This document shows positions 4,160 to 58,520 of a DNA stretch of 64,000 nt, piece by piece. The notes under the pieces are model-generated. The model made no database searches, had not been told where the DNA came from, and worked only from the letters and a program-made list of their open reading frames with translations. Source of the stretch: Escherichia coli (GTDB lineage: Bacteria; Pseudomonadota; Gammaproteobacteria; Enterobacterales; Enterobacteriaceae); assembly GCF_016903815.1 (NCBI RefSeq), contig NZ_CP069973.1, one strand, 5' to 3'. Within the stretch, counting starts at the first letter, position 1. The number at the start of each line of letters is the position of its first letter. The position numbers and the translations under genes are program-made.

Positions 4160-4935
4160 TTTGCCGTTTTATCGATACCCACTGCCATTTTGATTTCCCG
4201 CCGTTTAGCGGCGATGAAGAGGCCAGCCTGCAACGCGCAGCACAAGCGGGCGTAGGCAAGATCATTGTTCCGGCGACAGAGGCGGAAAATTTTGCCCGCG
4301 TGCAGGCGTTAGCGGAAAAATATCAACCGCTGTATGGCGCGTTAGGGTTGCATCCGGGGATGTTAGAAAAACATAGCGATGCATCGCTGGAGCAGTTACA
4401 GCAGGCGCTGGAAAGGCATCCGGCGAAGGTGGTGGCGGTGGGGGAGATCGGCCTGGATCTCTTTGGCGACGATCCGCAATTTGAGAGGCAGCAGTGGTTA
4501 CTCGACGAACAACTGAAACTGGCGAAACGCTACGATCTGCCGGTGATCCTGCATTCACGGCGCACGCACGACAAACTGGCGATGCATCTTAAACGCCACG
4601 ATTTGCCGCGTACTGGCGTGGTTCACGGTTTTTCCGGCAGCCTGCAACAGGCTGAACGGTTTGTACAGCTGGGCTACAAAATTGGCGTAGGCGGCACTAT
4701 CACCTATCCACGCGCCAGTAAAACCCGCGATGTCATCGCAAAATTACCGCTGGCATCGTTGTTGCTGGAAACCGACGCGCCGGATATGCCGCTCAACGGT
4801 TTTCAGGGGCAGCCTAACCGCCCGGAACAGGCCGCGCGGGTGTTTGCTGTGCTTTGTGAGTTACGCTTGGAACCCGCAGATGAAATTGCCGAAGTGTTGC
4901 TTAATAACACGTATACGTTGTTTAACGTGCTGTAG
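4156..4935 (+). CDS. yjjV: TatD-family metal-dependent hydrolase
   Basis: 259-aa ORF with TTG start; HxH motif (DTHCHFDF); overlaps yjjU stop by 4 nt. Confidence 0.88.
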   Translation: MICRFIDTHCHFDFPPFSGDEEASLQRAAQAGVGKIIVPATEAENFARVQALAEKYQPLYGALGLHPGMLEKHSDASLEQLQQALERHPAKVVAVGEIGLDLFGDDPQFERQQWLLDEQLKLAKRYDLPVILHSRRTHDKLAMHLKRHDLPRTGVVHGFSGSLQQAERFVQLGYKIGVGGTITYPRASKTRDVIAKLPLASLLLETDAPDMPLNGFQGQPNRPEQAARVFAVLCELRLEPADEIAEVLLNNTYTLFNVL

Positions 4936-5050
4936 GCCGGATAAGGCGTTCACGCCGCATCCGGCAGTTGGCGCACAATGCCTGATGCGACGCTTGACGC
5001 GTCTTATCATGCCTACAAGTCTGTGCCGAACTGTAGGCCACATCCGGCAT
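4936..5050. repeat. REP/BIME cluster (about three palindromic units) between convergent yjjV and yjjW
   Basis: GCCGGATAAGGCGTTCACGCCGCATCCGGC and related palindromes read directly in the sequence. Confidence 0.8.
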
Positions 5051-12085: not shown

Positions 12086-12349
12086 TCATTTATGTTCAGC
12101 CGTCATCCAGGAAGGGCATATCAGCAACTCTGGTGGACAACCATAAATTTCTGCCATTTTGCTTTTGATGTTTGAGCTAAGCCGTTCCGTCTTTTCGATC
12201 TGTTTTAGAGAATTAATCGAGATACCTAACATTTTACTTACTTCAGCAAGCGATAATTTATGCCTGATACGCACGGCGGCTAGCCAGGAAATACGCTGGC
12301 TGAACATTAAATTGATAATCTCCCGTTCCTGGTTTTCCAGATCGATCAT
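12086..12349 (-). CDS. small XRE-type helix-turn-helix protein (87 aa); possibly the HTH remnant of yjjJ
   Basis: ORF with strong RBS (AGGGAAGGAAAT-ATG); HTH-like segment LSLAEVSKMLGISINSLKQIEK; 31 bp downstream of lplA on the same strand. Confidence 0.55.
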   Translation of the reverse strand: MIDLENQEREIINLMFSQRISWLAAVRIRHKLSLAEVSKMLGISINSLKQIEKTERLSSNIKSKMAEIYGCPPELLICPSWMTAEHK

Positions 12350-34104: not shown

Positions 34105-34800
34105 CACAGAAAACCCCCAGCTAGGCTGGGGGTTCCGGAAAGCTTTCAGCTTTGAGCCAGTTATTAAAACCCCTTTTGATTTGTTAAAACACCTTGCGGT
34201 CTGGCAACTGCAAGTGTCAAACAAGAAATCAAAAGGGGGTCCCAATGGGGAACGAAAAGAGCTTAGCGCACACCCGATGGAACTGTAAATATCACATAGT
34301 TTTTGCGCCAAAATACCGAAGACAGGTGTTCTACAGAGAGAAGCGTAGAGCAATAGGCAGTATTTTGAGAAAGCTGTGTGAGTGGAAAAGCGTACGGATT
34401 CTGGAAGCTGAATGCTGTGCAGATCATATCCATATGCTTGTGGAGATCCCGCCCAAAATGAGCGTATCCGGGTTTATGGGATATCTGAAAGGGAAAAGCA
34501 GTCTGATGCTTTACGAGCAGTTTGGTGATTTGAAATTCAAATACAGGAACAGGGAGTTCTGGTGCAGAGGGTACTACGTCGATACAGTGGGTAAGAACAC
34601 GGCGAAGATACAGGATTACATAAAGCACCAGCTTGAAGAGGATAAAATGGGAGAGCAGTTATCGATTCCCTATCCGGGCAGCCCGTTTACGGGCCGTAAG
34701 TAACGAAGTTGGATGCAAATGTCAGATCGTGTGCGCCTGTTAGGGCGCGGCTGGTAAGAGAGCCTTATAGGCGCATTTGAAAAACCTCCGGCTATGCCGG
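34105..34800 (+). mobile_element. IS200-like element (IS200/IS605 family); ends approximate
   Basis: 152-aa Y1 tnpA preceded by a perfect terminal hairpin (CCCCCAGC-TAG-GCTGGGGG, 34114..34132) and a 13-bp stem (34170..34182 with 34227..34239) that sequesters the RBS. Confidence 0.6.
34245..34703 (+). CDS. tnpA: IS200-family transposase TnpA (HUH / Y1)
   Basis: 152 aa from ATG 34245 (MGNEKSLAHTRWNCKYHIVFAPKYRR...), near-identical to remembered Salmonella IS200 TnpA; HxH motif HIHMLVEIPP. Confidence 0.9.
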   Translation: MGNEKSLAHTRWNCKYHIVFAPKYRRQVFYREKRRAIGSILRKLCEWKSVRILEAECCADHIHMLVEIPPKMSVSGFMGYLKGKSSLMLYEQFGDLKFKYRNREFWCRGYYVDTVGKNTAKIQDYIKHQLEEDKMGEQLSIPYPGSPFTGRK

Positions 34801-48939: not shown

Positions 48940-50856
48940 ATGGGTAAAATAATTGGTATCGACCTGGGTACTACCAACTCTTGTGTAGCGATTATGGATG
49001 GCACCACTCCTCGTGTACTGGAGAACGCCGAAGGCGATCGCACCACGCCTTCTATCATTGCCTATACCCAGGATGGTGAAACTCTGGTTGGTCAGCCGGC
49101 TAAACGTCAGGCAGTGACGAACCCGCAAAACACCCTGTTTGCGATTAAACGCCTGATTGGCCGCCGCTTCCAGGACGAAGAAGTACAGCGTGATGTTTCC
49201 ATCATGCCGTTCAAAATTATTGCTGCTGATAACGGCGACGCATGGGTCGAAGTTAAAGGCCAGAAAATGGCACCGCCGCAGATTTCTGCTGAAGTGCTGA
49301 AAAAAATGAAGAAAACCGCTGAAGATTACCTGGGTGAACCGGTAACTGAAGCTGTTATCACCGTACCGGCATACTTTAACGATGCTCAGCGTCAGGCAAC
49401 CAAAGACGCAGGCCGTATCGCTGGTCTGGAAGTAAAACGTATCATCAACGAACCGACCGCAGCTGCGCTGGCTTACGGTCTGGACAAAGGTACTGGCAAC
49501 CGTACTATCGCGGTTTATGACCTGGGTGGTGGTACTTTCGATATTTCTATTATCGAAATCGACGAAGTTGACGGCGAAAAAACCTTCGAAGTTCTGGCAA
49601 CCAACGGTGATACTCACCTGGGTGGTGAAGACTTCGACAGCCGTCTGATCAACTACCTGGTTGAAGAATTCAAGAAAGATCAGGGCATTGACCTGCGCAA
49701 CGATCCGCTGGCAATGCAACGCCTGAAAGAAGCGGCAGAAAAAGCGAAAATCGAACTGTCTTCCGCTCAGCAGACCGACGTTAACCTGCCGTACATCACT
49801 GCAGACGCGACCGGTCCGAAACACATGAACATCAAAGTGACTCGTGCGAAACTGGAAAGCCTGGTTGAAGATCTGGTAAACCGTTCCATTGAGCCGCTGA
49901 AAGTTGCACTGCAGGACGCTGGCCTGTCCGTATCTGATATCGACGACGTTATCCTCGTTGGTGGTCAGACTCGTATGCCAATGGTTCAGAAGAAAGTTGC
50001 TGAGTTCTTTGGTAAAGAGCCGCGTAAAGACGTTAACCCGGACGAAGCTGTAGCAATCGGTGCTGCTGTTCAGGGTGGTGTTCTGACTGGTGACGTAAAA
50101 GACGTACTGCTGCTGGACGTTACCCCGCTGTCTCTGGGTATCGAAACCATGGGCGGTGTGATGACGACGCTGATCGCGAAAAACACCACTATCCCGACCA
50201 AGCACAGCCAGGTGTTCTCTACCGCTGAAGACAACCAGTCTGCGGTAACCATCCATGTGCTGCAGGGTGAACGTAAACGTGCAGCTGATAACAAATCTCT
50301 GGGTCAGTTCAACCTGGATGGTATCAACCCGGCACCGCGCGGCATGCCGCAGATCGAAGTTACCTTCGATATCGATGCTGACGGTATCCTGCACGTTTCC
50401 GCGAAAGATAAAAACAGCGGTAAAGAGCAGAAGATCACCATCAAGGCTTCTTCTGGTCTGAACGAAGATGAAATCCAGAAAATGGTACGCGACGCAGAAG
50501 CTAACGCCGAAGCTGACCGTAAGTTTGAAGAGCTGGTACAGACTCGCAACCAGGGCGACCATCTGCTGCACAGCACCCGTAAGCAGGTTGAAGAAGCAGG
50601 CGACAAACTGCCGGCTGACGACAAAACTGCTATCGAGTCTGCACTGACTGCACTGGAAACTGCTCTGAAAGGTGAAGACAAAGCCGCTATCGAAGCGAAA
50701 ATGCAGGAACTGGCACAGGTTTCCCAGAAACTGATGGAAATCGCCCAGCAGCAACATGCCCAGCAGCAGACTGCCGGTGCTGATGCTTCTGCAAACAACG
50801 CGAAAGATGACGATGTTGTCGACGCTGAATTTGAAGAAGTCAAAGACAAAAAATAA
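48940..50856 (+). CDS. dnaK: Hsp70 chaperone DnaK
   Basis: 638-aa [24 protein letters not shown]... Confidence 0.98.
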
Positions 50857-50944
50857 TCGCCCTATAAACGGGTAATTATACTGACACGGGCGAAGGGGAA
50901 TTTCCTCTCCGCCCGTGCATTCATCTAGGGGCAATTTAAAAAAG
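50857..50944 (+). ncRNA. putative structured dnaK-dnaJ intergenic RNA (tpke11 position in K-12)
   Basis: hairpin ACGGGCGAAGGGGAATTTCCTCTCCGCCCGT in the 88-bp spacer; K-12 annotation from memory. Confidence 0.25.
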
Positions 50945-52075
50945 ATGGCTAAGCAAGATTATTACGAGATTTTAGGCGTTTCCAAAACAGCGGAAGAGCG
51001 TGAAATCAAAAAGGCCTACAAACGCCTGGCCATGAAATACCACCCGGACCGTAACCAGGGTGACAAAGAGGCCGAGGCGAAATTTAAAGAGATCAAGGAA
51101 GCTTATGAAGTTCTGACCGACTCGCAAAAACGTGCGGCATACGATCAGTATGGTCATGCTGCGTTTGAGCAAGGTGGCATGGGCGGCGGCGGTTTTGGCG
51201 GCGGCGCAGACTTCAGCGATATTTTTGGTGACGTTTTCGGCGATATTTTTGGCGGCGGGCGTGGTCGTCAACGTGCGGCGCGCGGTGCTGATTTACGCTA
51301 TAACATGGAGCTCACCCTCGAAGAAGCTGTACGTGGCGTGACCAAAGAGATCCGCATTCCGACTCTGGAAGAGTGTGACGTTTGCCACGGTAGCGGTGCA
51401 AAACCAGGTACACAGCCGCAGACCTGTCCGACCTGTCATGGTTCTGGTCAGGTGCAGATGCGCCAGGGTTTCTTTGCCGTGCAGCAGACCTGTCCACACT
51501 GTCAGGGCCGCGGTACGCTGATCAAAGATCCGTGCAACAAATGTCATGGTCATGGTCGTGTTGAGCGCAGCAAAACGCTGTCCGTTAAAATCCCGGCAGG
51601 AGTGGACACTGGAGACCGCATCCGTCTTGCGGGTGAAGGTGAAGCGGGCGAGCATGGCGCACCGGCAGGCGATCTGTACGTTCAGGTTCAGGTTAAACAG
51701 CACCCGATTTTCGAGCGTGAAGGTAACAACCTGTATTGCGAAGTCCCGATCAACTTCGCTATGGCAGCGCTGGGTGGCGAAATCGAAGTACCGACCCTTG
51801 ATGGTCGCGTCAAACTGAAAGTGCCTGGCGAAACCCAGACCGGTAAGCTGTTCCGTATGCGCGGTAAAGGCGTCAAGTCTGTTCGCGGCGGTGCGCAAGG
51901 TGACTTGCTGTGCCGCGTTGTCGTCGAAACACCGGTAGGTCTGAACGAGAAGCAGAAACAGCTGCTGCAAGAGCTGCAGGAAAGCTTCGGTGGCCCAACC
52001 GGTGAGCACAACAGCCCGCGTTCAAAGAGCTTCTTTGATGGTGTGAAGAAGTTTTTTGACGACCTGACTCGCTAA
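50945..52075 (+). CDS. dnaJ: Hsp40 co-chaperone DnaJ
   Basis: 376 aa from ATG 50945 ([21 protein letters not shown]...); G/F-rich region and four CxxCxGxG repeats. Confidence 0.98.
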
Positions 52076-52178
52076 CCTCCCCAAAAGCCTGCCTGTGGGC
52101 AGGCCAGGGTAAAAATAGGGTGCGTTGAAGATATGCGAGCACCTGTAAAGTGGCGGGGATCACTCCCCGCCGTTGCTC

Positions 52179-52331
52179 TTACTCGGATTCGTAAGCCGTG
52201 AAAACAGCAACCTCCGTCTGGCCAGTTCGGATGTGAACCTCACAGAGGTCTTTTCTCGTTACCAGCGCCGCCACTACGGCGGTGATACAGATGACGATCA
52301 GGGCGACAATCATCGCCTTATGCTGCTTCAT
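52179..52331 (-). CDS. hokC: Hok-family membrane toxin HokC (type I toxin)
   Basis: 50 aa, MKQHKAMIVALIVICITAVVAALVTRKDLCEVHIRTGQTEVAVFTAYESE. Confidence 0.85.
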   Translation of the reverse strand: MKQHKAMIVALIVICITAVVAALVTRKDLCEVHIRTGQTEVAVFTAYESE

Positions 52332-52388
52332 TGCTCTCTTCTCCTTGACCTTACGGTCAGTAAGAGGCACTCTACATGTGTTCAGCAT
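52179..52388 (-). CDS. mokC: MokC, overlapping reading frame that enables hokC translation
   Basis: 69-aa frame from ATG 52388 (MLNTCRVPLTDRKVKEKRA...) running into hokC in the same frame. Confidence 0.6.
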   Translation of the reverse strand: MLNTCRVPLTDRKVKEKRAMKQHKAMIVALIVICITAVVAALVTRKDLCEVHIRTGQTEVAVFTAYESE

Positions 52389-52434
52389 ATAGGGAGCCTC
52401 GGGTTGATGGTAAAATATCACTCGGGGCTTTTCT
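52380..52434 (+). ncRNA. sokC: SokC antisense RNA (type I antitoxin); coordinates transferred from K-12 by offset
   Basis: position antisense to the mokC start; typical hok/sok architecture. Confidence 0.4.
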
Positions 52435-52916
52435 CTATCTGCCGTTCAGCTAATGCCTGAGACAGATAGCCTCAAGCACCCGCCGCTATTATATCGCTCT
52501 CTTTAACCCATTCTGTTTTATCGATTCTAATCCTGAAGACGCCTCGTATTTTTATGGCGTAATTTTTTAATGATTTAATTATTTAACTTTAATTTATCTC
52601 TTCATCGCAATTATTGACGACAAGCTGGATTATTTTTGAAATATTGGCCTAACAAACATCGCCGACTGACAACAAATTAATTATTACTTTTCCTAATTAA
52701 TCCCTCAGAAATCCTGACCTTAAGCTATGATTATCAGGGCTTAGGGTCACTCGTGAGCGCTTACAGCCGTCAAAAACTCATCTCATCGCTAATGGCACAA
52801 ATCCTTCAATGGTTCGTAAAAAACGAATTATTCCTACACTATAATCTGATTTTAACGATGATTCGTGCGGGGTAAGATAGTAAAAACGATCTATTCACCT
52901 GAAAGAGAAATAAAAA

Positions 52917-54083
52917 GTGAAACATCTGCATCGATTCTTTAGCAGTGATGCCTCGGGAGGCATTATTCTTATCATTGCCGCTATCCTGGCGATGATTATG
53001 GCCAACAGCGGCGCAACCAGTGGATGGTATCACGACTTTCTGGAGACGCCGGTTCAGCTCCGGGTTGGTTCACTCGAAATCAACAAAAACATGCTGTTAT
53101 GGATAAATGACGCGCTGATGGCGGTATTTTTCCTGTTAGTCGGTCTGGAAGTTAAACGTGAACTGATGCAAGGATCGCTAGCCAGCTTACGCCAGGCTGC
53201 ATTTCCAGTTATCGCCGCTATTGGTGGGATGATTGTGCCGGCATTACTCTATCTGGCCTTTAACCATGCCGATCCGATTACCCGCGAAGGGTGGGCGATC
53301 CCGGCGGCTACTGACATTGCTTTTGCACTTGGTGTGCTGGCGCTGTTGGGAAGTCGTGTTCCGTTAGCGCTGAAGATCTTTTTGATGGCTCTGGCTATTA
53401 TCGACGATCTTGGGGCCATCATTATCATCGCATTGTTCTACACTAATGACTTATCGATGGCCTCTCTTGGTGTCGCGGCTGTAGCAATTGCGGTACTCGC
53501 GGTATTGAATCTGTGTGGTGTACGCCGCACGGGCGTCTATATTCTGGTTGGCGTGGTGTTGTGGACTGCGGTGTTGAAATCGGGGGTTCACGCAACCCTG
53601 GCGGGGGTAATTGTCGGCTTCTTTATTCCTTTGAAAGAGAAGCATGGGCGTTCTCCAGCGAAGCGACTGGAGCATGTGTTGCACCCGTGGGTGGCGTATC
53701 TGATTTTACCGCTGTTTGCATTTGCTAATGCTGGCGTTTCACTGCAAGGCGTCACGCTGGATGGCTTGACCTCCATTCTACCATTGGGGATCATCGCTGG
53801 CTTGCTGATTGGCAAACCGCTGGGGATTAGTCTGTTCTGCTGGTTGGCGCTGCGTTTGAAACTGGCGCATCTGCCTGAGGGAACGACTTATCAGCAAATT
53901 ATGGCGGTGGGGATCCTGTGCGGTATCGGTTTTACTATGTCTATCTTTATTGCCAGCCTGGCCTTTGGTAGCGTAGATCCAGAACTGATTAACTGGGCGA
54001 AACTCGGTATCCTGGTCGGTTCTATCTCTTCGGCGGTAATTGGATACAGCTGGTTACGCGTTCGTTTGCGTCCATCAGTTTGA
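52917..54083 (+). CDS. nhaA: Na+/H+ antiporter NhaA
   Basis: 388-aa ORF with GTG start, [31 protein letters not shown]... Confidence 0.96.
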
Positions 54084-55085: not shown

Positions 55086-56045
55086 TTAGTTGTACATTAC
55101 CACGATTTTGACTCGGCTCATTATTTGCCCGCTTGAGACATTATTTCCATATGTACGCGGGCGAATAAATAGAGGAATCTGATTACTTCCTTCATGGGGA
55201 TGCTGAAAAGAGTAGTAATTGCTTTTACCATACTGCATTTCATTCGTACCATCATTGGAGAGTTGAAAGCCTATTTGACCCGCACCGTCCTCACTGTTTT
55301 CTAAATCATTTTTTAATATGCTGGTTCCTGAATCCTGTATCGTCACTGGCTCAAAGTAATATTCAACATCACTAGGTTCAAAAACTAATTCACCTTGCTC
55401 ACCCTGGATACAGTCAAATCTTATATGATGAAACTGATAAATTTCATTATTGATACGAGACAGTACAAATCGTCCAGTGTCGATGGATTGATCTTCAAAA
55501 CCACAGGTCATTAAATTTACCTGTAAAATAGTATTTAAATTAAAATTAAAGCGGACGCTATTACAATTAGTATTATTCCCTGTACATGAACTCACTTCAA
55601 TTTCGAACAGCAAAGGAAAAGGAGTTCCTGGAAAAATATCTGCGGTGTCAGAACTATCTGATACAGATGCGATAGAATATGGAATGGTGAAATTTATCGC
55701 AGATAGCATTTCTTCTAAATTATAAGATAACTTCCCTGGAAGCTCTATTTTTTTACCGTCAGATTCAAAGGGGAAATTAATAATGTAATGACGACTTCCG
55801 ACTTTAAACCTTAAAGCGTTCTGTGTTAAAAAATGAACTTTAATGGCGTTGGTCGTCTCTTGCAAGTCTGCACACTCAATGATATTCCCGGTGTTTTCAA
55901 TTTTCTCGGCAGTTAGATTACCTTTCATACTCAGTGGCTTGAGTATATATGTTCCACGTTGTTCACCGACATTGGTCACTGCACAGGGAGCACTTTGCAC
56001 AATAAAAGAATATAGACTTAAGGTGATTAATAAAAGCCACTTCAT
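55086..56045 (-). CDS. putative fimbrial tip adhesin / minor subunit (last gene of the chaperone-usher operon)
   Basis: 319-aa ORF with signal peptide MKWLLLITLSLYSFIVQSA; larger than a pilin, consistent with a two-domain adhesin; 12 bp after the usher. Confidence 0.6.
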   Translation of the reverse strand: MKWLLLITLSLYSFIVQSAPCAVTNVGEQRGTYILKPLSMKGNLTAEKIENTGNIIECADLQETTNAIKVHFLTQNALRFKVGSRHYIINFPFESDGKKIELPGKLSYNLEEMLSAINFTIPYSIASVSDSSDTADIFPGTPFPLLFEIEVSSCTGNNTNCNSVRFNFNLNTILQVNLMTCGFEDQSIDTGRFVLSRINNEIYQFHHIRFDCIQGEQGELVFEPSDVEYYFEPVTIQDSGTSILKNDLENSEDGAGQIGFQLSNDGTNEMQYGKSNYYSFQHPHEGSNQIPLFIRPRTYGNNVSSGQIMSRVKIVVMYN

Positions 56046-56057
56046 AGTAAACTCCTT

Positions 56058-58508
56058 TTACTGGCATATATATGTTTTGTTTTCATCGATAACGTGTTGA
56101 AAAGTAATAGTACAGAATAAGTTCTGTTCATCATTGAGAGCAACTTTTATGCCAGTGGGAATTTCATCTACGCGAATAAAAAGGCGACTACCCTGGCCAA
56201 CGACTCCAATATTGTTTTCCTGGAGATCCAGTACGTCATAGCCAAAGGTTAATGGCGAACCATCGGTACGCAGTGCCTGTATATACCAGGGCTTACGTTG
56301 GTCAGTTGTAAACTGCACATAAGAAACTGCTCCACGGTAAGGCGCAATAATTTGACGATTGCCCTGCAATTCTGTTTCACTTTCACTGTTTGCTATATCA
56401 AGTACCAGATGGTTTTCACGATGAGGTATCATCAGGTCGTAAACAACCTGGCCTTTGCTGTTTGTTCGGTTGTATTTTTGTCCATTAATATGCGCGCCTT
56501 CTAACCCAGGCGCATCCAGAATTGCAAATGTATCGGATAACTGGTTAGTTATATTAATACCACCGGGCCAGACAACTAATCCACTACTAATACTTCCACC
56601 ACTTTGCCAGGCGTTTTTAGAATGGCTATAGCTGCCATCTATTGTGGCGATGGGAGTTCTCCAGCTTAAATTCGTACCAAGCGAGGTATCATTATTTTGT
56701 TGTTGCTGATTAACATATATACCATAATTTAACTGATCATGTTCACCGGCTATGCCAGTAATTCCAGTATTGTTGGAGGAATAGCCATCTTTGGAAAATG
56801 AGGTCGAATTCGATAAGTTAATTTGGTGACGTGTTTTGGCAATATCATCCCCCCAGTAGAAAGGAATGGAGATAAACAGATTAAAACGCTCCTCTTCTTT
56901 ATCGTTTTCATCATAGGATTGGCTGGCAGAGAAAGTATAACTAATGCGTTGCCAGCTATTTGAATAACTGAATTGGTAATCTTTAGCATTTCCACTTCGC
57001 CCCCAGTAATTCCGCCAAAGCGCACTTAATGATACATTTCCCAGATTATTGGATAAAGGTTGCATAATATTGGCAGAAAGGCTATTTTTTCTGCCAATAT
57101 CATAAAAATCATCATATTCACTCTGATGATTGTGTTTATCATTTTCGTAAAGATGGTCGCTGAACGTCCTGTAATCCTGCGAAGCATAACGCCAGGCGGC
57201 CACGCTAAAGCGAGTAGCCGTTTGCACTAGATATTTATTATAGGCGACCTGATAGCTCGTACCTTCGTGTGTTATATCATTATTTAACTTACTACTCGAT
57301 CGGGTAGCGTCAAAAGAGATGGCACCCAGCGGTGTATTCCAACCATTTCCCAGGGTTATAGCATTATAGTTATCGGATAAAATCGTACCGCCATAAAGTG
57401 TCAAAAGATTGTTGAGGCCATATATATAATTTGCCTCGAGAAAGTCCTCCTGATTCTTTACACCATATATCTTACTGCGTCCGGCGATAAAATCGAAATT
57501 TGAAACACCAGGTTGCAGCATGTTGGGTACGGAAGAGTAGGGGACCAAAAAGGAACGAACACTACCATCTGCTTCCTTTATGCTGACATCGAGATCTGAG
57601 CCGCTGCCTGAAAGTTGCAAATCTGCGATAGTAAATGGCCCGGGGGGAACCTCTTTTTGGTAAATGATGTAGCCATTTTGCGAAACCGTTATCAAGGCAA
57701 TACTTTGCGCAACACCTTGTACTAAAGGTGTAAAGCTCTGCATAGAATCAGGTAGCATTTGCATATCGCGAAATAAGCGTATTCCGCTAAATCGCAGAGA
57801 GTCGAATATGAGTGAGGATGTGTAATTTTCTCCTATCTGAACTGTGCTTAATATTTGCGACCAGCCACGTTCCAGGTAAAGAGTATTACTTTGCCATGTG
57901 CCTTTCATATCATCAGGCTTGCTATAGCTGGCATCAGAGTGTAATTGCCAACTAAATAAATTTAATCCGCTGTTAAAACGACCATAACTGGCTGTATTAC
58001 TATTATTATTGCTGTCATAAGAGCGATACTGACTTAAATTATAGGAGGTATAAAAAGCATCAATGCCGCGATCCCAACTTTCCGGGGGAACGTAACCTCT
58101 TTCAAGTTCATTGATATACGCCTGTGGGATCGTTAAATTTAGTCGGTGTTCACTGATATCCCACTGATATTGTCCACCATGAACCGCTTCATCCAGTAAA
58201 ATACAATTATCTTCTGTATTGAGATTATCGGTTTTTACCCCCAGTGTGGTTAGTAGCACCTTAGGCAGACATGGTTTGGCTGGTGACTCTGGGATCGTGA
58301 TATCTTGTTTCCCACGCCACTGGTGGTTTACATAAACATCAAGTTCGTAGTTTCCCGGAAGAGGTTGTTTATTATCGAAGCGATATTCGGAAACTTTTTT
58401 TCCTCTCATGCCGCCAATCATGAAGTGCGTATCAAAAGTTTCTTCAGCATAACCCGGAAAAGAATACAAAAAAATAATAGCAGCGACCCATCGTGTCGTC
58501 CTTAACAT
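56058..58508 (-). CDS. fimbrial outer-membrane usher (FimD/PapC family)
   Basis: 816-aa ORF with signal peptide; length and beta-strand-rich Tyr/Gly/Asn composition typical of ushers. Confidence 0.85.
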   Translation of the reverse strand: MLRTTRWVAAIIFLYSFPGYAEETFDTHFMIGGMRGKKVSEYRFDNKQPLPGNYELDVYVNHQWRGKQDITIPESPAKPCLPKVLLTTLGVKTDNLNTEDNCILLDEAVHGGQYQWDISEHRLNLTIPQAYINELERGYVPPESWDRGIDAFYTSYNLSQYRSYDSNNNSNTASYGRFNSGLNLFSWQLHSDASYSKPDDMKGTWQSNTLYLERGWSQILSTVQIGENYTSSLIFDSLRFSGIRLFRDMQMLPDSMQSFTPLVQGVAQSIALITVSQNGYIIYQKEVPPGPFTIADLQLSGSGSDLDVSIKEADGSVRSFLVPYSSVPNMLQPGVSNFDFIAGRSKIYGVKNQEDFLEANYIYGLNNLLTLYGGTILSDNYNAITLGNGWNTPLGAISFDATRSSSKLNNDITHEGTSYQVAYNKYLVQTATRFSVAAWRYASQDYRTFSDHLYENDKHNHQSEYDDFYDIGRKNSLSANIMQPLSNNLGNVSLSALWRNYWGRSGNAKDYQFSYSNSWQRISYTFSASQSYDENDKEEERFNLFISIPFYWGDDIAKTRHQINLSNSTSFSKDGYSSNNTGITGIAGEHDQLNYGIYVNQQQQNNDTSLGTNLSWRTPIATIDGSYSHSKNAWQSGGSISSGLVVWPGGINITNQLSDTFAILDAPGLEGAHINGQKYNRTNSKGQVVYDLMIPHRENHLVLDIANSESETELQGNRQIIAPYRGAVSYVQFTTDQRKPWYIQALRTDGSPLTFGYDVLDLQENNIGVVGQGSRLFIRVDEIPTGIKVALNDEQNLFCTITFQHVIDENKTYICQ

Positions 58509-58520
58509 GACTTTTTCCTG

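Follow-up and report, generated by a model that had tools for sequence, protein, structure and literature searches.

The hokC/mokC/sokC type I toxin-antitoxin locus in the DNA analysed here (a stretch of 64 kb, referred to below as the window) is the ordinary, uninterrupted form found in E. coli, and the IS186 insertion at hokC in K-12 is the exception among sequenced E. coli. Very probably the window holds the uninterrupted, and probably ancestral, arrangement and the K-12 IS186A state was derived from it at an IS186 hot spot, and we propose that the hokC mRNA of the window passes through a fold-back cycle resembling that of plasmid R1. The genes, the empty insertion site, the complementarity between the mRNA ends and the population frequencies are direct observations. 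The intact hokC and its contrast with K-12 are already known, both forms having been described in 1999, and the uninterrupted form is a previously characterised majority state; the counts of IS186 in both orientations given below add a small new quantification of known hot-spot behaviour.

Gene arrangement of the hokC locus

Every base of the 64 kb window agrees with E. coli strain 7/2 (NZ_CP023820.1; 100.000% identity), with window positions 1-36893 corresponding to 5062348-5099240 of that record and positions 36894-64000 to 1-27107. The genes and leader signals of the locus and its neighbours are as follows.

48940-50856, plus strand: dnaK
50945-52075, plus strand: dnaJ coding sequence, convergent with hokC (open reading frame and translation; the dnaJ annotation of strain 7/2 at 14052-15182 maps here)
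52179-52331, minus strand: hokC, 50-aa Hok/Gef membrane toxin (Pfam PF01848)
52179-52388, minus strand: mokC, 69-codon frame (open reading frame from the K-12 ATG; K-12 mokC, 16751-16960, maps here)
52380-52438, plus strand: putative sokC antisense RNA, complementary to the mokC ribosome-binding region (mapped from K-12 sokC, 16952-17010)
52329-52481, minus strand: 5' leader of the hokC mRNA, from the inferred +1 to the hokC AUG, holding the SokC target and the mokC start (Rfam RF01794)
52488-52493, minus strand: perfect TATAAT, probable -10 of the hokC promoter (read from the sequence)
52917-54083, plus strand: nhaA, with nhaR next

The dnaJ stop codon (TAA) occupies 52073-52075 and the hokC stop codon, on the minus strand, 52179-52181, which leaves exactly 103 bp (52076-52178) between the two. 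HokC (50 aa, MKQHKAMIVALIVICITAVVAALVTRKDLCEVHIRTGQTEVAVFTAYESE) matches the full Hok/Gef profile PF01848 (positions 1-42) with E = 1.8e-24 and 85.5 bits against a cut-off of 22. At its N-terminal end mokC extends the hokC frame by 19 codons, the two ending at a common stop, and by analogy with the hok/sok family the translation of hokC may be coupled to that of the overlapping upstream mokC. The sequence-only reading that preceded this analysis had held that hokC and the overlapping mokC frame are intact, with which the open frames and the PF01848 match agree, and that dnaJ ends 103 bp from the hokC stop, which is exact on the coordinates; the span it gave, 52076-52440, stops short of the end of the locus on the right, the leader reaching 52481 and the TATAAT lying at 52488-52493. 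In strain 7/2, PGAP names the 153-nt hokC coding sequence 'toxin MokC'.

Low-level (9%) A-to-I editing of hokC, which recodes a Tyr to Cys, is described in PMC12214031. The hokC Tyr47 codon UAC is found within CGG-CUUACGAAU-CCG (52184-52198, minus strand), UACG being the motif used by TadA, and a tRNA-Arg-like hairpin at this codon was considered and rejected, the segment giving no stable fold (-1.3 kcal/mol, z = 0.55).

Leader, promoter and sokC

The Rfam family RF01794 ('sok') matches the hokC strand along the entire 157-position model (1-157), scoring 120.5 bits against a gathering score of 59, and the match ends at the hokC AUG. A match on the hokC-sense strand up to the hokC AUG implies that the family models the toxin mRNA leader, with the complement of SokC, rather than the antisense RNA, and an annotation drawn from RF01794 alone would place 'sok' on the wrong strand. 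The TATAAT sits 6 nt upstream of the first RF01794 base, which we take as the probable hokC +1. A scan for consensus promoters and terminators picked up no signal of hokC or sokC and missed the TATAAT because no good -35 accompanies it; the hokC -10 and the 3' hairpins described below were identified by reading and folding.

Region 52380-52438 is antisense to the mokC AUG and Shine-Dalgarno and differs from K-12 sokC at two bases (52394-52395). Its predicted fold leaves the first nine nucleotides unpaired as a 5' tail and continues with a long hairpin and a U-run (-23.4 kcal/mol, z = -4.7), and judged by its sequence the region probably encodes the SokC antitoxin RNA. A separate Rfam match, to the Pseudomonas rpsL leader, was set aside as chance (17.6 bits against a gathering score of 70).

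The empty IS186 site

In the K-12 MG1655 annotation the order is dnaJ, IS186A (15387-16731, transposase insL1), mokC (16751-16960), hokC (16751-16903), sokC (16952-17010) and nhaA, which confirms the statement of the sequence-only reading that K-12 has IS186 (insL1) between dnaJ and hokC. The alignment with K-12 that had been suggested as a check was carried out with blastn and a base-by-base display: the dnaJ flank of the K-12 element matches window 51900-52167 and its hokC flank window 52156-53000, so the insertion is located at window 52156-52167, where the K-12 flanks overlap by 12 bp (GGGATCACTCCC), the target duplication (11-12 bp). Compared with the window, K-12 is longer by 1,349 bases (IS186 plus the target duplication); the length of IS186 is given as 1,338 bp in PMC3562002. 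The insertion point lies inside a hairpin (GGCGGGGATCACTCCCCGCC) that is whole in the window.

52152-52171, no strand assigned: hairpin GGCGGGGA-UCAC-UCCCCGCC (as DNA GGCGGGGA-TCAC-TCCCCGCC), the empty IS186 target (K-12 alignment and fold)

This hairpin is perfect, with a predicted fold of -18.5 kcal/mol (z = -3.9), and the window carries the 12-bp target in a single copy. A search for the IS186 terminal repeat with up to three mismatches allowed gave no match anywhere in the 64 kb window, and together with the empty site in the K-12 alignment this bears out the original description of the locus as uninterrupted. From the IS186 site through hokC and mokC K-12 equals the window, the hokC coding DNA being identical, and in the hokC mRNA leader the two differ only at 52394-52395 and 52467. 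The first difference is a CU/UC swap between the mokC Shine-Dalgarno and AUG, which also falls on SokC nt 15-16, and the second, A/G, alters one pair of a leader helix (A-U vs G-U).

IS186 occupancy across E. coli

A 401 bp query across the site matched 5,425 of 5,426 complete E. coli genomes. Laboratory strains are over-represented among these, so the percentages apply to the database and not to nature: the site was uninterrupted in 3,814 of 5,425 genomes (70%) and split in 1,611, the break usually falling at position 197 of the query (window 52156). Orientation was counted with junction queries on the dnaJ side, which are single-copy. IS186 had the K-12 orientation in 672 genomes and the opposite one in 922, which explains 1,594 of the 1,611 split genomes. 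Junction queries on the hokC side, which these replaced, over-counted (819 + 938, above the 1,611 interrupted genomes), and we suspect that hokC-like paralogues also carrying IS186 reached the coverage threshold. K-12 is atypical at hokC, and wild E. coli mostly keep hokC with a complete regulatory 3' end.

Individual genomes illustrate the range of states. Strain M217 carries IS186 in the opposite orientation, 99.9% identical and with the same 12-bp overlap, and its locus has been struck twice, an IS150 copy lying inside the hokC leader/sokC region at the equivalent of window 52402-52406. In strain MLI104K2 an apparent 711-bp dnaJ-hokC insert (1790-2500), annotated as 'hypothetical protein', was rejected as a further kind of insertion, its G, C and A homopolymer runs marking an assembly artefact over an IS186 copy; the artefact stands in a RefSeq 'complete' genome.

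Across the 64 kb a GGGG-N3-6-CCCC site occurs just once, as GGGGATCACTCCCC at 52155-52168, and the target consensus of IS186 is reportedly at least four G, N3-6 and at least four C, a consensus said to go back to SaiSree et al. 2001. Other hok genes have been entered at the same place: K-12 hokE has IS186B in a homologous GGGG-N6-CCCC hairpin just 3' of the hok stop, and the hok gene of plasmid pfosA3 (NZ_CP047005; annotated hokD, IncY replicon) has IS186 in the homologous hairpin GGGGAGAGATCCC at ~490-560. With the hairpins of hokC, hokE and the pfosA3 hok all occupied by IS186, the hok 3' hairpin is a recurrent target of this element. The recurrence may reflect selection for removal of the hok 3' fold-back and not merely the target preference of IS186, a suggestion we regard as rather unlikely; were it true, IS186 would have deregulated or disarmed the toxin, and in wild strains the intact locus, as in the window, would entail a genuine fitness cost or have a genuine function.

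The same observations bear on the direction of change. IS elements occasionally excise precisely between their target duplications, and this general capacity, with nothing direct beside it, would allow the window state to be the derived one, IS186 having once been present and later lost without trace. We hold such a history to be highly improbable, as the window has one copy of the 12-bp target and its perfect hairpin bears no footprint, most genomes have the hairpin intact, distant plasmid hok homologues have it as well, and the presence of IS186 in both orientations points to repeated gain and not loss. An insertion in K-12 into a previously intact hairpin remains our preferred reading.

3' elements and predicted fold-back of the hokC mRNA

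The RNA from 52481 to 52078 (404 nt) was folded and gave -173.8 kcal/mol (z = -7.05 vs shuffles). Four elements of the predicted structure matter here in addition to the hairpin at the IS186 site.

52470-52481, minus strand: tac-like 5' end of the hokC mRNA, GGGUGCUUGAGG (MFE structure; identical in three plasmid hok homologues)
52131-52151, minus strand: 3' segment, in the full-length mRNA the predicted pairing partner of the mokC start region (GCAUAU with AUAUGC; ACUUUACA with UGUAGAGU)
52118-52130, minus strand: fbi-like box CUUCAACGCACCC, the predicted partner of nt 1-12 of the hokC mRNA (MFE structure)
52082-52105, minus strand: terminator-like hairpin GGCCUGCC-CACA-GGCAGGCU followed by UUUU (fold, and helix in the full-length MFE structure)

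In the MFE structure nt 1-12 pair with nt 352-364 (12 pairs, one bulge), ~350 nt downstream, and in the ensemble the probability that the 5' end of the mRNA is unpaired is 0.01. Of all sites in the mRNA, fbi gives the 5' end its strongest duplex (tac-fbi, -18.3 kcal/mol); when the 99-nt 3' region was shuffled, 202 of 5,000 randomised sequences did as well (p ~0.04), and the duplex alone is only modestly better than chance. The structure also contains helices 92-97/346-351 and 106-113/331-338, through which the mokC AUG region pairs with 52131-52136 and nt 106-113 with 52144-52151, the mokC AUG having a probability of 0.00 of being unpaired. All of these 3' pairing partners, whether of the 5' end, the mokC start or nt 106-113, lie past the K-12 IS186 insertion point.

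Plasmid hok loci (~75% identity) lend the fold-back independent support. Their homology to the window begins at nt 1 and stops at nt 364-365, precisely where the fbi box ends, and within the alignment the box is conserved (CCUCAA[C/U]GCACCC) and the flanks on either side diverge. The changes in the box are limited to G-U to G-C, plus a variable bulge base, and no double compensatory changes in the tac-fbi pairing were seen in the plasmid hok alignment.

Two hairpins are candidates for the ends of the transcript. The one at 52082-52105 (-20.7 kcal/mol, z = -2.9; spanning 52086-52105 in the 404-nt structure; absent from the stricter consensus scan), the stem of which read on the plus strand comes directly after dnaJ, is likely the 3' end of the full-length hokC mRNA of ~400 nt, a terminator role suggested by its predicted fold. 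The hairpin at 52152-52171 is likely the protective 3' hairpin of a trimmed hokC mRNA of ~332 nt, and the predicted length of 332 nt agrees with the ~330 nt quoted for the ECOR24 hokC transcript in PMC3562002. The quoted length would also suit a transcript that simply ends at the 52152-52171 hairpin, leaving the box untranscribed, its match to the 5' end fortuitous and 52076-52151 nothing but the dnaJ terminator, and a shuffle test of only p ~0.04 leans the same way. We consider this improbable: CACUUUACAGG, and not a U-run, comes after the hairpin on the minus strand, a second hairpin with UUUU is present at 52082-52105, the plasmid homology continues past the first hairpin exactly to the end of the box, and the literature (PMC3562002) ascribes the K-12 defect to loss of fbi.

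For the longer transcript that we favour, the window mRNA trimmed after the 52152-52171 hairpin (332 nt) was refolded and compared with a K-12 transcript extended by 644 nt into IS186, a distance taken from PMC3562002. For both RNAs the prediction is that the 5' end switches to nt 52-58 as its partner and that nt 82-118 form a hairpin bearing the mokC Shine-Dalgarno and AUG with a CUGAACA loop. As the K-12 RNA refolds like the trimmed RNA, K-12 is predicted to be in the 'processed' fold constitutively. The first description of the locus had named disruption of the fold-back elements of the hokC leader as a concern, and these elements are intact, but the element lost in K-12 is the 3' box and not one of the leader. 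Its proposal that regulation may differ from K-12 is plausible, given the predicted 5'-end pairing lost in K-12 and the literature, and with IS186 present in K-12 and the fold-back elements of the window intact that description stands.

Proposed mechanism

We infer the transcript ends, the trimming, the refolding and any phenotype in the following scheme. The hokC promoter would make an mRNA of ~400 nt, in which tac (52470-52481) would pair with fbi (52118-52130) and more 3' sequence would cover the mokC start; folded back in this way, the full-length RNA would escape both translation and SokC binding. Its 3' end would then be slowly trimmed as far as the 52152-52171 hairpin, giving the ~332-nt RNA, the 5' end of which may refold and so expose the hairpin with the mokC ribosome-binding site and its CUGA (YUNR-type) loop. 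At the exposed hairpin SokC would pair and trigger decay, or else mokC would be translated, and with it, by coupling, hokC, yielding the 50-aa membrane toxin. In K-12 the IS element inside the 3' hairpin would remove the fold-back box and the transcript would run into IS186.

Activity of the intact locus

The hokC gene was characterised from ECOR24, where it is intact (Pedersen & Gerdes 1999, via PMC3562002), and hokA, hokC and hokE of K-12 are described as inactivated by insertion elements in PMC12214031 and PMC2654758. According to the 2026 bioRxiv preprint 10.1101/2025.08.07.668861, summarising Pedersen & Gerdes, the intact ECOR24 hokC gave no post-segregational killing and no activation by rifampicin, and reportedly no plasmid stabilisation, and HokC is toxic when overexpressed; by this second-hand summary the single published test of intact hokC is negative. 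The report of an ECOR24 hokC with neither killing nor rifampicin activation suggests that an R1-style cycle may not reach killing at this locus.

The window locus may therefore be intact in sequence and yet lack addiction-type activity, a conserved chromosomal hok copy, inert or put to another use, for which the absence of IS186 would make no phenotypic difference from K-12, and we consider this a serious possibility, if not quite a probable one. The ECOR24 result fits it, as do the 30% of genomes in the survey that tolerate IS186 at the site in either orientation and the additional IS150 inside the hokC leader of M217. An inert copy sits less easily with the retention of all regulatory elements and a coding sequence identical to that of K-12, with an uninterrupted form kept in 70% of the genomes surveyed, and with the toxicity of overexpressed HokC given in the summary cited above. 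For studies of chromosomal hok function an uninterrupted strain is the one to use; otherwise the distinction matters mainly for correct annotation.

Other features of the window

Several accessory segments lie elsewhere in the 64 kb. A chaperone-usher fimbrial operon of four genes and the type III effector gene espX1 occupy ~55086-61509, between nhaR and rpsT, where K-12 presumably has IS1A. A copy of IS1397 (IS3-like) is found at ~22125-23473 between a LysR-family gene and ettA, and a copy of IS200C at ~34112-34703 between creD and arcA, with the Rfam RNA STnc490 (34112-34235, 146 bits) directly upstream of the IS200C transposase gene. The nadR-ettA accessory block at ~17858-21944, which we take to be missing from K-12, comprises a NadS pseudogene, DUF1471, SRPBCC, an SDR oxidoreductase, an aldo/keto reductase and a LysR regulator. 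An 87-aa helix-turn-helix gene stands alone at ~12086-12349 between deoD and lplA, where we assume that K-12 has the full-length yjjJ (hipH) kinase gene, and it may be a yjjJ (hipH) remnant. Rfam also places tpke11 in the dnaK-dnaJ spacer (50867-50944, 69.6 bits) and naRNA4 at 4935-5013 (76.6 bits), both expected E. coli features.

Comparison with known systems

The architecture of hok/sok on plasmid R1 is well established and is the basis of our comparison. Like the R1 hok/mok/sok (parB) system, the window locus has a Hok/Gef toxin, an upstream mok frame and a short cis-antisense RNA over the mok start, and from the predicted structures it would also share the 5'-3' fold-back pairing and a 3' hairpin at which trimming would stop. 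It differs in being chromosomal, and also in that the intact hokC locus reportedly fails to stabilise plasmids. In the window mokC is in the hokC frame, whereas in the plasmid homologue of NZ_CP013030 (alignment read by eye) a 1-nt indel puts mok in another frame, ending near the hok stop; the hok locus of plasmid NZ_CP044141 has the same 1-nt difference.

Among chromosomal loci, the ECOR24 hokC/sokC (Mol Microbiol 32:1090), which we compared through its description in the citing papers, occupies the same site between dnaJ and nhaA, without IS186 and with fbi intact. In K-12 MG1655 the gef/sof locus (hokC/sokC) has the same hokC coding sequence and the same neighbouring genes as the window, but its 1,349-bp insertion, which the window lacks, splits the 3' hairpin and takes the fold-back box out of the transcript; PMC3562002 likewise describes IS186 as disrupting the fbi element of K-12 gef/hokC. 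In K-12 hokE with IS186B, which faces the other way relative to the toxin gene, and in the pfosA3 hok with IS186 the homologous hairpin is occupied, whereas the hokC of the window represents the empty-site state.
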